From Saccharothrix sp. (lineage in GTDB: Bacteria; Actinomycetota; Actinomycetes; Mycobacteriales; Pseudonocardiaceae): a stretch of 32,000 nt of DNA. The stretch is from positions 114,455 to 146,454 of the forward strand of contig NZ_JAPSLK010000007.1 in the NCBI RefSeq assembly GCF_031180885.1, given 5' to 3'. A model generated the notes under the pieces. The model worked only from the letters and a program-made list of their open reading frames with translations, made no database searches and was not told the origin of the DNA. The translations under genes and the position numbers were made by a program. Positions 2,688 through 5,600 of the stretch are shown one piece after another (position 1 is the first letter of the stretch; each line of letters starts with the position of its first letter).

Positions 2688-5600
2688 TCACTTCCCCGGA
2701 GCGGGGAAGTAGCCCTTGCGGACGAAGAAGTCCACGTACCTGCCGAACAGCGCCCGGTCGATCGGCGGGCACGTGATCCCGCTGCCCGCCAGCGCCTTCT
2801 CCGTGTCCGACACGTCCATGGGCGGGTAGGTCGGCCGCGCGCCCGGGGAGTTGAGTTCCTCGAACGAGTCGAACAGCGGGGTGACCGCGTTGTCGCGGTC
2901 GGCGGCGATCCGCGCGCGCCAGGCGTCCCAGTCGGATTCGGGCAGGTCGTACCCGAACGCCCGCAGGTGGTCGACGAGGTCGCCGAACGACTGGGACTGC
3001 TCGTTGAACAGGTGGAACGTGCCGTTCACCGTGGACTCGCGGCCGGCCAGCGCGGTGATGGCCCCGCTGACGTAGTCGACCGCGACCAGGTGCACCCGGC
3101 CGGTCAGCCGGTCCGGGACCGCGCCCGCCTGGAGCAGGCCCTTGAGGCTGAGCCACACGAAGTCCTTGGTCTGGCACGCGCCGCTGTCGCGGTCGCCGCA
3201 CACCACGTCGACCCGGTAGACCGACACCGGGATGCCGCGGGCGCGGGCGATCCCGAGCACGCCCTCCGCCACCCACTTGCTCTGCAGGTAACCGTTGCGC
3301 AGCAGGTGCGCGGGACCGGTGGTGGCGGTGACGCCCACCGGCTCGTCGTCCGCCGAGGCGGCGAACACCCCGGTGGTCGACACGTAGTGCACCGGGACCG
3401 TGCGGTGGCGGGCGGCCAGCCGCAGCACCTCGACGGTGCCGGTCACGTTCGAGCGCTTCAGGTCGGTGTACGGGCGCACCCAGCTCACCGTGGCCCCGGC
3501 GTGGAAGACGGCGTCGACCCGGCGGGCCAGGTCGTCGAACACCTCCTCGCCCAGGCCCAGCCGGTGGGCGGTGAGGTCGCCGACGTGGACGACGACCCGG
3601 GCGGGGTCGATCTCCTCCGCGACCTCGTACCACTCCAGGTTCTCCCGCAGCCTGCGCTCCGCGTCGGCCTGGTCGGCGCCGCGCACCAGGCAGTGCACGA
3701 CCGCGTCGGTGCGGCGGACGATGTCGCGCAGCAGGAACGCCCCGAGGAACCCGGTGGCGCCGGTCAGCAGGACCTCGCCGGGATCGGTGGCGGCGGTGAC
3801 CACGGTGTCGGCGGCGACGACGTCGTCGTCGAGCGCCACCTCGGCGGTGAAGTCCACGCCCGCGACGGCGTCGCCGCCGGTCGCCGCGCCCGCGGTGGTG
3901 CGCAGGAACTCGGCGAGCGCGGCGGGTGTCGGGTGCTCGAACACCAGCGAGGCGGGCAGTCGCGTGCCGAGGTGGGCGGCCAGGCGGTTGCGCAGTTCCA
4001 CCGAGATCAGCGAGTCGAAGCCGAGGTCGGCGAAGGGCTGGTCGGCGCCGATCGCGGAGGCGTCGGCGTGGCCCAGGACCGACGCGACCTCGGCGCGGAC
4101 CAGTTCGCCCACGATCTCCCGCTGCCGCTGTTCGGACTGCCCGGCCAGCCGCCGGCCCAGCGGCTCGACCTCGCCGGCTCCACCGGTGGCCCGCCTCGAC
4201 CTGATCCTGGCCAGGGCGGTGAACAGCAGCGGCAGCGAAGCGGGTTGGACGACCGGCGCACGCAGGTCCAGCGGCGTCACCACCGGCGCGGGCCGGCCCG
4301 ACCGCAGTGCGGCGTCGAACAGGCCGAGGCCCTCGTCGGGGGTGATCGGCACCAGCCCGGTGCGGGCGATGCGCTTGAGGTCGGCGTCGCCGAGGGTGCC
4401 GCCCATGCCGCCCACCCCCGACCACAGGCCCCACACCAGCGAGGTCGCCGCGAGCCCGGCGCCCGCCCGGTGCGCGGCCAACGCGTCGAGGAACGTGTTC
4501 GCCGCGGCGTAGGCGCCCTGGCCGGAACCGCCGATGACGCCGGCGACCGAGGAGAACAGCACGAACGCCGACAGGTCCGCGTCCTTGGTCAGCTCGTGCA
4601 GGTTCCACGCGGCGTGCACCTTGGGCCGCAACACCCTGGCGACGTGGTCGGCGTCCAGCGAGTCGATCATGCCGTCGTCCAGCACACCGGCCATGTGCAC
4701 GACACCGATGAGCGGGTGCGCGGCGGGCACGGCGGCCAGCACCGAGGCCAGCGCGTCCCGGTCGGCGGCGTCGCACGAGGTGATCGTGACCCGCGCGCCG
4801 AGCGCGGCCAGTTCGTCGGCCAGCTCGCCCGCGCCCGGCGCGTCCGGGCCGCTGCGGCTGAGCAGCAGCAGGTCGGTCACGCCGTGGGCGCGGACGAGGT
4901 GCCGGGCGAACAACGCGCCCAGCGCGCCGGTGCCGCCGGTGATCAGGACCGTGCCGCCCGGTCGCCACGGCGACGCCGCGCGCCCCGGTGCGAGCCGGGC
5001 GAGCCTCGGCGCGGCCACCGAGCCCGCGCGCACGGCCAGCTGCGCCTCACCCGTGGCGATCGCCGCGGGCAGCGCGGACAGCGACGCCGGGTCGTCGTCG
5101 ATGTCGATCAGCCGGAACCGGCCGGGCATCTCGGTCTGGGCGGAGCGCAGCAGGCCCCAGACGCCGGCCGCGGCCAGGTCGACCGGGGTGTCGTCGGCGT
5201 CGATCGCGCGCCGGGTCAGCAGGACCAGCGGGACGTTCGCGGAGCGCTCGTCGTCGTTCCAGGCGCGGACGAGTTCCAACGCCCGCACGACGGCGGCCTG
5301 CGCCCGGTCCGCGACCGTGCCCGCCGCGTCGTCCCGCGCGGCCGACACCATCGGCACGACCAGGCCGGTGAACGACCCGGCGGCGGACAGCGCCTCGCCG
5401 ATCCCGGCGAACCGCAGCGGCCACGGCAGGCTGTTGCCGTCGGTCTCCACCACGGCCAGTCCGGCCGGGCCGGGCAGCTCCGCCGGGATGACCGGGGTCC
5501 ACGCCACGCGGAACAGCGCGTCGCCGGGACGGGCCAGCGCGGCGCCGACCTCGTCCTCGCTCGCGGGCCGGGTGACCACGCCCGAGGCGTGGGCGAGCGG

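Follow-up and report, generated by a model that had tools for sequence, protein, structure and literature searches.

We analysed a 32,000-nucleotide stretch of DNA from Saccharothrix sp. (contig NZ_JAPSLK010000007.1, positions 114,455 to 146,454 of the forward strand; hereafter the window), which encodes the modular polyketide synthase (PKS) subunits PKS1 and PKS2. Judged by its sequence and its modelled fold, the C-terminal domain of PKS2 is a thioester reductase (TR) of the CpkC type, with an extended short-chain dehydrogenase/reductase (SDR) architecture. Its cofactor site is complete, its Thr-Tyr-Lys triad is intact and it lies directly after an acyl carrier protein (ACP) that can be phosphopantetheinylated. 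The best explanation, to which we assign a probability of about 0.85, is that this TR is active and would release a C8 chain as an aldehyde, which would be converted to an amine and then to a piperideine. This explanation draws on the sequence, the structural model and analogy with characterised relatives.

Identification of the terminal domain

PKS2 is read on the minus strand from an ATG at 9098 to a TGA stop at 2690-2688, a frame supported by translation and by the G+C content at third codon positions (GC3) in a window whose overall G+C content is high (70-78%). The Pfam domain order is N-terminal docking, ketosynthase (KS), acyltransferase (AT), dehydratase (DH), ketoreductase (KR), ACP and TR. 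Of the roughly 440 residues C-terminal to the ACP serine, about 355 belong to the reductase, and the PP-binding domain ends about 45 residues N-terminal of the TR start. An initial annotation of this DNA had proposed a terminal TR in place of a thioesterase, and its motifs are all found in this single minus-strand frame: GFDSL at 4022..4008 with the serine codon at 4013-4011 as claimed, a 15-residue Rossmann motif at 3773..3729 and a 10-residue Tyr/Lys motif at 3293..3264. The interval given there, 2691-3790, does bracket the TR domain, but position 3790 is two bases out of frame, while 3788 is in frame.

The TR matches the NCBIfam model TIGR01746 ("thioester reductase") with 304.8 bits against a curated cut-off of 213.35 and covers profile positions 2-369 of 371. 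The Pfam family NAD_binding_4 (PF07993) is matched over profile positions 1-258 of 258 with an E-value of 2.6e-65 and 220.6 bits against a cut-off of 20.1. Partial NCBIfam matches are observed to the reductase ends of MxcG, Lys2/alpha-aminoadipate reductase, carboxylic acid reductase (CAR) and AusA. Among PDB sequences the best match is 8V1X (E-value 1.6e-135), the NADP+-bound thioreductase of CpkC from the coelimycin PKS (bioRxiv 10.1101/2024.10.29.620908). It is followed by the MxaA reductase 4U7W (9.8e-74) and then by CAR, Mycobacterium tuberculosis Nrp, archaeal nonribosomal peptide synthetase (NRPS) and AusA reductases. The CpkC, MxaA, CAR, Nrp and AusA enzymes all act in chain release. 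Since the NAD_binding_4 and 8V1X E-values are this low and the TIGR01746 score is above its cut-off, the family match is not a matter of chance. The initial annotation had expected a domain search to assign the region to the thioester reductases; NAD_binding_4 and TIGR01746 are indeed assigned, and an outcome with epimerases or dehydratases only did not occur.

An AlphaFold2 model of the TR was computed from an alignment of 15 homologues with identities down to 31% (A1). Its mean predicted local distance difference test (pLDDT) value is 88.2 and its predicted template modelling score (pTM) is 0.88. A Foldseek search with this model gives a template modelling (TM) score of 0.92 at 59% identity to 8V1X and a TM score of 0.85 to the MxaA structure 4W4T. 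One stretch is poorly modelled, a 20-residue, indel-rich loop between the catalytic Thr and Tyr (domain residues 143-162). The alignment to the CpkC and myxalamid reductases suggested in the initial annotation bears it out, as the Tyr and Lys are kept in a model that superposes on both the CpkC TR and the MxaA reductase.

Catalytic residues and selection

In the TGxxGxxG loop for NAD(P)H binding, G1780 and G1783 (G10 and G13 of A1) are invariant and G1786 (G16) is nearly so. Two arginines further along, R1806 and R1816, pair in the 8V1X alignment with CpkC R1824 and R1834, which coordinate the 2'-phosphate of NADP+ (bioRxiv 10.1101/2024.10.29.620908). T1908, Y1937 and K1941 are invariant across the 15 homologues, and Y1937 is found opposite CpkC Y1956, identified as the proton donor in the same preprint. 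A loss of the catalytic Tyr or Lys, which the initial annotation named as an observation that would overturn it, is not seen; both residues, together with the Thr, are kept throughout the alignment. The TR is under purifying selection, with ratios of nonsynonymous to synonymous substitution rates (dN/dS) of 0.20-0.41 against eight orthologues.

Assembly line and proposed chain release

PKS1 is organised as a KSQ-AT-ACP loading module, a KS-AT-DH-KR-ACP module, a KS-AT*-DH(N-terminal half only)-KR*-ACP module and a C-terminal docking region. Its docking tail matches the docking head of PKS2, which fixes the order PKS1 to PKS2 and makes the TR truly terminal. The whole line thus comprises a KSQ loading module and three extension modules. 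In modules 1 and 3 the DH is complete and the KR is of the B-type (LAD/LDD); in PKS2 the KR motif is LDD, and its AT motif HAFH is of the malonyl type. Module 2 (window 9880-12760) is degenerate. Its DH has lost the C-terminal half, and neither the YGP motif nor the catalytic Asp is present. The third Asp of the LDD motif is missing from its KR, which reads LDG, and in this genome the FSS motif with the catalytic Ser has become FSA. All orthologues share the truncated DH and the altered LDD motif, as seen by comparing the upstream open reading frames of loci L001-L015. Only this genome and Lentzea alba have the Ser-to-Ala change, FSS being retained in the Streptosporangiales orthologues; it was therefore rejected as a conserved design feature. 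The AT2 motifs are unusual and conserved (FTGGGAQ / GHS(T/A)GE / VASH, with GHSTGE here). A subset of the Streptomyces relatives has the methylmalonyl-type GHSQGE in AT2 instead.

From this organisation and by analogy with published clusters, we predict that the TR substrate is a 5-oxo-C8 acyl-ACP made from an acetate starter and three extenders. The acetate starter is suggested by the KSQ and the HAFH-type AT, the C8 length by the KSQ loading module followed by only three extension modules, and the ketone at C5 by the degenerate DH and KR of the penultimate module. The prediction also relies on module 4 of ArpP from argimycin P biosynthesis, which is described in similar terms: its penultimate KR is without the LDD Asp and its DH without the motifs, and the inactivity of this pair was proposed to preserve the ketone with which the amine reacts to close a piperideine ring (PMC5300972).

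As judged from characterised relatives, the ACP would hand the finished acyl thioester to the TR, hydride from NADPH would give a thiohemiacetal, and this would collapse to the free aldehyde in a two-electron release. A CrmG/CpkG-like omega-transaminase, encoded divergently from the PKS operon, would then convert the aldehyde to a primary amine. With a ketone at C5, the amine could condense there to a 2-propenyl-type piperideine, the predicted first cyclic product, which an imine reductase, two flavin amine oxidases and a P450 would process further. This set of neighbours agrees with the published scheme for actinobacterial polyketide alkaloids, in which a TR yields an aldehyde, a CpkG-type transaminase converts it to an amine, and closure onto a chain ketone yields a piperideine (PMC5365063, PMC5300972, PMC5820336). 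A nitrogen-containing polyketide is the predicted product, which the imine reductase and the genes resembling cyclic amine oxidases support indirectly. The best PDB match of the transaminase, closest by a wide margin, is CrmG (5DDS, 1.6e-147), an omega-transaminase of the caerulomycin pathway, where it aminates an aldehyde intermediate (PMC7438487). It lies about 19 kb from the TR, and by this likeness it is predicted to accept the TR aldehyde. The initial annotation held that the release domain dictates the pathway that follows, and the adjacent omega-transaminase and imine reductase are consistent with this.

No thioesterase is found that would offer another release route. PF00975 has no Pfam match in the PKS2 protein, and no G.S.G motif is present downstream of the ACP, in line with the earlier remark on missing GxSxG thioesterase motifs. 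In a whole-genome profile search, PF00975 had no match on this contig between positions 98455 and 200414, and a type II thioesterase is therefore absent from the vicinity.

The cofactor and the extent of reduction are less straightforward, since published assays of the CpkC TR differ. Awodi et al. described it as dependent on NADH only and obtained 1-octanol from octanoyl-CoA without the transaminase (PMC5365063). In a 2024 preprint NADPH was the preferred cofactor, which its authors attributed to the two arginines; the CpkC TR (TR1) was far slower on octanal than on thioesters and TR9 was unreactive with octanal, and they concluded that PKS TRs stop at the aldehyde (bioRxiv 10.1101/2024.10.29.620908). 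For the TR described here, NADPH use and aldehyde release are favoured by analogy, because the Arg pair is conserved and a cognate transaminase is encoded. The initial annotation had left aldehyde or alcohol open; the transaminase and the published relatives tip the balance towards the aldehyde, although the older assay saw over-reduction.

Alternative explanations

A four-electron reduction that releases a primary alcohol, as in MxaA and the M. tuberculosis GPL reductase, with the transaminase acting elsewhere, is unlikely. MxaA, the second-best structural relative, does form an alcohol, and the 1-octanol of Awodi et al. points in the same direction; but octanal was a slow substrate for TR1 and none for TR9, the CrmG-like, aldehyde-aminating transaminase shares the promoter region of the PKS genes, and an imine reductase and amine oxidases would have a role only if the product contains nitrogen. 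Less likely still is a TR that is non-redox or vestigial, either an R*-type Dieckmann cyclase or a dead relic beside another release route, and we consider this very improbable. R* domains have the same fold, and the activity of the TR is here a prediction. However, R* domains are without the catalytic Tyr, whereas the Thr, Tyr, Lys, glycine loop and both Arg are invariant here, the dN/dS values are 0.2-0.4, the PKS1 and PKS2 domains include neither an NRPS module nor an amino-acyl partner with which a Dieckmann reaction could take place, and no thioesterase is nearby. The region could also be read as a generic extended-SDR enzyme, an epimerase or a dehydratase, that became fused accidentally and plays no part in chain release, as Pfam Epimerase, GDP_Man_Dehyd and 3Beta_HSD match it and sugar epimerases appear in the fold search. 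These matches reach only 70, 36 and 33 bits against about 220 for NAD_binding_4 and 305 for TIGR01746, though, and Foldseek ranks 1-26 hold carrier-protein-dependent reductases only, the sugar epimerases starting at rank 27. The C-terminal substrate-binding subdomain aligns end to end with that of the CpkC TR, and a related ACP-TR terminus is found in at least 1937 PKS-sized proteins, which carry the NCBI name "thioester reductase domain-containing protein". By TIGR01746, the 8V1X alignment and the fold search, the epimerase/dehydratase reading is effectively refuted.

An active, aldehyde-releasing TR acting on a C8 chain remains the best explanation, and several points weigh against parts of it. 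The CpkC TR assays conflict both on the cofactor (NADH-only or NADPH-preferring) and on further reduction of the aldehyde, and the activity of this TR and of its close orthologues is predicted from sequence. The likeness of the transaminase was judged against CrmG and not against CpkG itself. Colinearity and a functional AT2 are presupposed in the substrate prediction, and the unusual AT2 motifs make chain length, branching and extender uncertain. The Ser-to-Ala change in KR2 is not conserved in the Streptosporangiales orthologues. Furthermore, an active DH in module 3 would introduce a 2,3-E double bond, which would impede cyclisation if it were not isomerised, and the NTF2-like protein encoded directly downstream of the TR is a candidate for this step.

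Gene neighbourhood

Coordinates of the features are collected in Table 1. The imine reductase gene extends about 50 nt past the left edge of the window, and the cluster continues to the left at contig 106780-113944 (L029:8326-15490), where the flank encodes two paralogous flavin amine oxidases of about 525 residues, a P450 and an 811-residue SARP/AAA regulator; a second SARP regulator, a 1002-residue SARP-TPR protein, is found farther left. The best PDB relatives of the amine oxidases are entries titled only "Amine oxidase", among them the nicotine oxidoreductase NicA2 (5TTJ), and after these come MAO-N and 6-hydroxy-L-nicotine oxidase. A comparison of the NTF2/SnoaL-like protein with PDB sequences gave nothing informative; it is a candidate isomerase or cyclase. 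Past the PKS2 stop, a perfect inverted repeat looks like a terminator hairpin. Between this stop and the NTF2-like gene, at window 2565-2638, two perfect tandem 20-mers GCGGCGGCGATTACCCGACT (minus strand) are accompanied by an inverted partial copy GGGTAATCGCCGCC, and this arrangement may be an operator.

Table 1. Features of the PKS-TR cluster in the window (positions in window coordinates).
Feature	Position	Strand	Basis
Imine reductase (RedAm-like)	1..857	minus	Pfam RedAm-like_C, NAD_binding_2
AraC/FtrA-like regulator within the cluster	990..2087	plus	Pfam/NCBIfam
NTF2/SnoaL-like protein, directly downstream of TR	2027..2539	minus	Pfam DUF4440/SnoaL_2
Perfect 11-bp inverted repeat GATCCGGCCGG / CCGGCCGGATC, 6-nt loop; terminator-like	2655..2682	minus	5 nt after PKS2 stop
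PKS2, last synthase subunit, 2136 aa	2688..9098	minus	Translation, motif coordinates, Pfam domain order
Terminal TR domain, gene residues 1776-2129, ~355 aa	2712..3773	minus	TIGR01746, NAD_binding_4, PDB matches, AlphaFold2 model
Catalytic triad T1908 (3377-3375), Y1937 (3290-3288), K1941 (3278-3276)	3276..3377	minus	A1, 8V1X alignment
R1806 (3683-3681) and R1816 (3653-3651)	3651..3683	minus	8V1X alignment; A1 R36, R46 invariant
TGATGFLG, TGxxGxxG NAD(P)H-binding loop (G1780, G1783, G1786)	3741..3764	minus	Motif and A1
ACP presenting the finished chain to TR; phosphopantetheine Ser1696, codon 4013-4011	3903..4103	minus	Pfam PP-binding 1.1e-16
PKS1, 4432 aa	9128..22426	minus	Domain searches and translation
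Class-III omega-transaminase, divergent from the PKS operon	22668..24278	plus	Pfam Aminotran_3 3.8e-62

Comparison with characterised systems

The closest characterised counterpart is the CpkC TR of Streptomyces coelicolor coelimycin biosynthesis. In both systems the last subunit is KS-AT-DH-KR-ACP-TR, and the TGxxGxxG loop, the 2'-phosphate Arg pair, the catalytic Tyr and a cluster-encoded omega-transaminase are shared, in addition to the fold and sequence likeness given above. They differ in chain length, as CpkABC has a loading and five extension modules (C12) and the line here a loading and three (predicted C8), and in their tailoring genes, which here encode an imine reductase, two NicA2/MAO-N-like amine oxidases, a P450 and an NTF2-like protein. 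The activities of the CpkC TR and CpkG have been published, as has the generalisation that PKSs ending in a TR are accompanied by a transaminase (PMC5365063). One criterion of Awodi et al. for polyketide-alkaloid clusters is a CpkG-homologous omega-transaminase within 35 kb of a TR, and they list 22 clusters, nine of them unassigned (PMC5365063). The TR-terminated modular PKS by which actinobacterial polyketide-alkaloid clusters are recognised is present here.

By published description, the argimycin P (arp) cluster of Streptomyces argillaceus and the streptazone (stz) cluster are also alike (PMC5300972, PMC5820336). The arp cluster shares a TR-terminated PKS (ArpPIII TR), the aminotransferase ArpN, the imine reductase ArpDHII, the SnoaL-like ArpHI/HII and the amine-oxidase-like flavoenzyme ArpO, besides the penultimate module described above. 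Unlike the present cluster, it makes a hexaketide (C12) with three PKS subunits, has a type II thioesterase, ArpT, of which no counterpart is found at contig 98455-200414, and has an inactive last DH, whereas the last DH here looks complete. The terminal reductase of MxaA from the myxalamid PKS-NRPS (4U7W/4W4T) shares the two-subdomain extended-SDR fold at 38-39% identity, release from a carrier protein and NADPH use, the latter predicted for the TR here. It differs in following an NRPS peptidyl carrier protein, in its four-electron reduction to an alcohol and in having no transaminase.

An orthologous cluster has been described before as pks-5 of Herbidospora cretacea NBRC 15474. Its TR is 90% identical, its PKS has 2142 residues, and its upstream PKS matches PKS1 in the layout ...ACP-KS/AT/DH/KR/ACP-KS/AT/DH/KR/ACP. 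Komaki et al. (2015) gave the last subunit (s36-orf54, Table 2) as KS/AT/DH/KR/ACP without a terminal domain (PMC4599437), and no product was predicted there because the cluster was incompletely assembled. A terminal reductase is clearly present in this Herbidospora PKS (L003:4979-11413, equal to s36-orf54) and was omitted from the published domain string. Our literature search for a characterised orthologue or a C8 actinomycete piperidine returned none, only arp, cpk, stz, the Pseudomonas koreenceine (with different enzymology) and the Herbidospora survey.

Distribution and possible mobility

The TR, SnoaL-like and imine reductase genes are syntenic in 14 related loci from six genera, and the AraC/FtrA-like regulator is syntenic in L001-L004, L006, L007, L012 and L015. 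The layout PKS2-TR/SnoaL/AraC/imine reductase is found with TR identities of 88-94% in Lentzea alba, Streptosporangium sp., Herbidospora cretacea and Nonomuraea longicatena. A short contig of an Umezawaea metagenome-assembled genome carries just PKS2, its TR included, and a Saccharothrix PKS is 92% identical across the ACP-TR region. Near-identical clusters are distributed patchily across Lentzea, Saccharothrix, Herbidospora, Nonomuraea and Streptosporangium, while more distant versions with 68-71% identity occur in many Streptomyces. Within the genus, a TR orthologue of at least 90% identity is present in only two of the 19 genomes searched. The synonymous divergence (dS) between the TR of the Lentzea-like copy here and those of Herbidospora, Nonomuraea and Streptosporangium, three genera of another order, is only 0.16-0.22, and this low value suggests horizontal spread between actinomycete orders. 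Together these data suggest that the cluster may be horizontally mobile.

Three more domains in the genome pass TIGR01746, at C111:136091-137167, C42:78768-79874 and C4:100592-101662. The first of these ends a 2299-residue open frame and is 57% identical to the TR, which suggests a second PKS-TR cluster in this genome. Most genomes of the genus have one or more PKS-TRs at 53-69% identity. In the Streptomyces loci L008-L011, L013 and L014, a transaminase lies about 250 bp upstream of a single PKS of about 1580 residues that precedes the TR-bearing PKS, and the latter has about 1880 residues and no DH. With only two modules visible near the TR in this Streptomyces group, iterative use or further PKS genes elsewhere would be needed.

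Significance of the finding

The release domain decides the class of the molecule, and here it marks a polyketide-alkaloid pathway, not a macrolide or an acid. The TR assignment is correct but ordinary, as this design is well known in actinomycete polyketide-alkaloid clusters. Since the enzyme type already has a crystal structure, assays and engineering uses, and thousands of such proteins are annotated as TRs at NCBI, the finding adds a member rather than a concept: the TR is an uncharacterised addition to the well-known CpkC/ArpPIII class of PKS terminal thioester reductases. The assignment is useful for annotation and genome mining, as the report on the Herbidospora orthologue missed the domain and gave no product. 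TRs that accept short chains are also of practical interest for engineered aldehydes, diols and amines, and the predicted C8 chain is shorter than those of the characterised clusters.

Tentatively, the cluster may be the shortest modular polyketide-alkaloid line, a tetraketide system that would give a 5-oxo-C8 aldehyde and then, once transaminated, cyclised and reduced at the imine, a C8N 2-propenyl-piperidine or pyridine, although we regard this as less probable than not. If true, it would be a modular-PKS bacterial counterpart of the coniine pathway of hemlock, which runs from 5-keto-octanal via gamma-coniceine to coniine. What is mildly new is the setting: a predicted tetraketide alkaloid line, very short and shared with hardly any change by rare actinomycetes.

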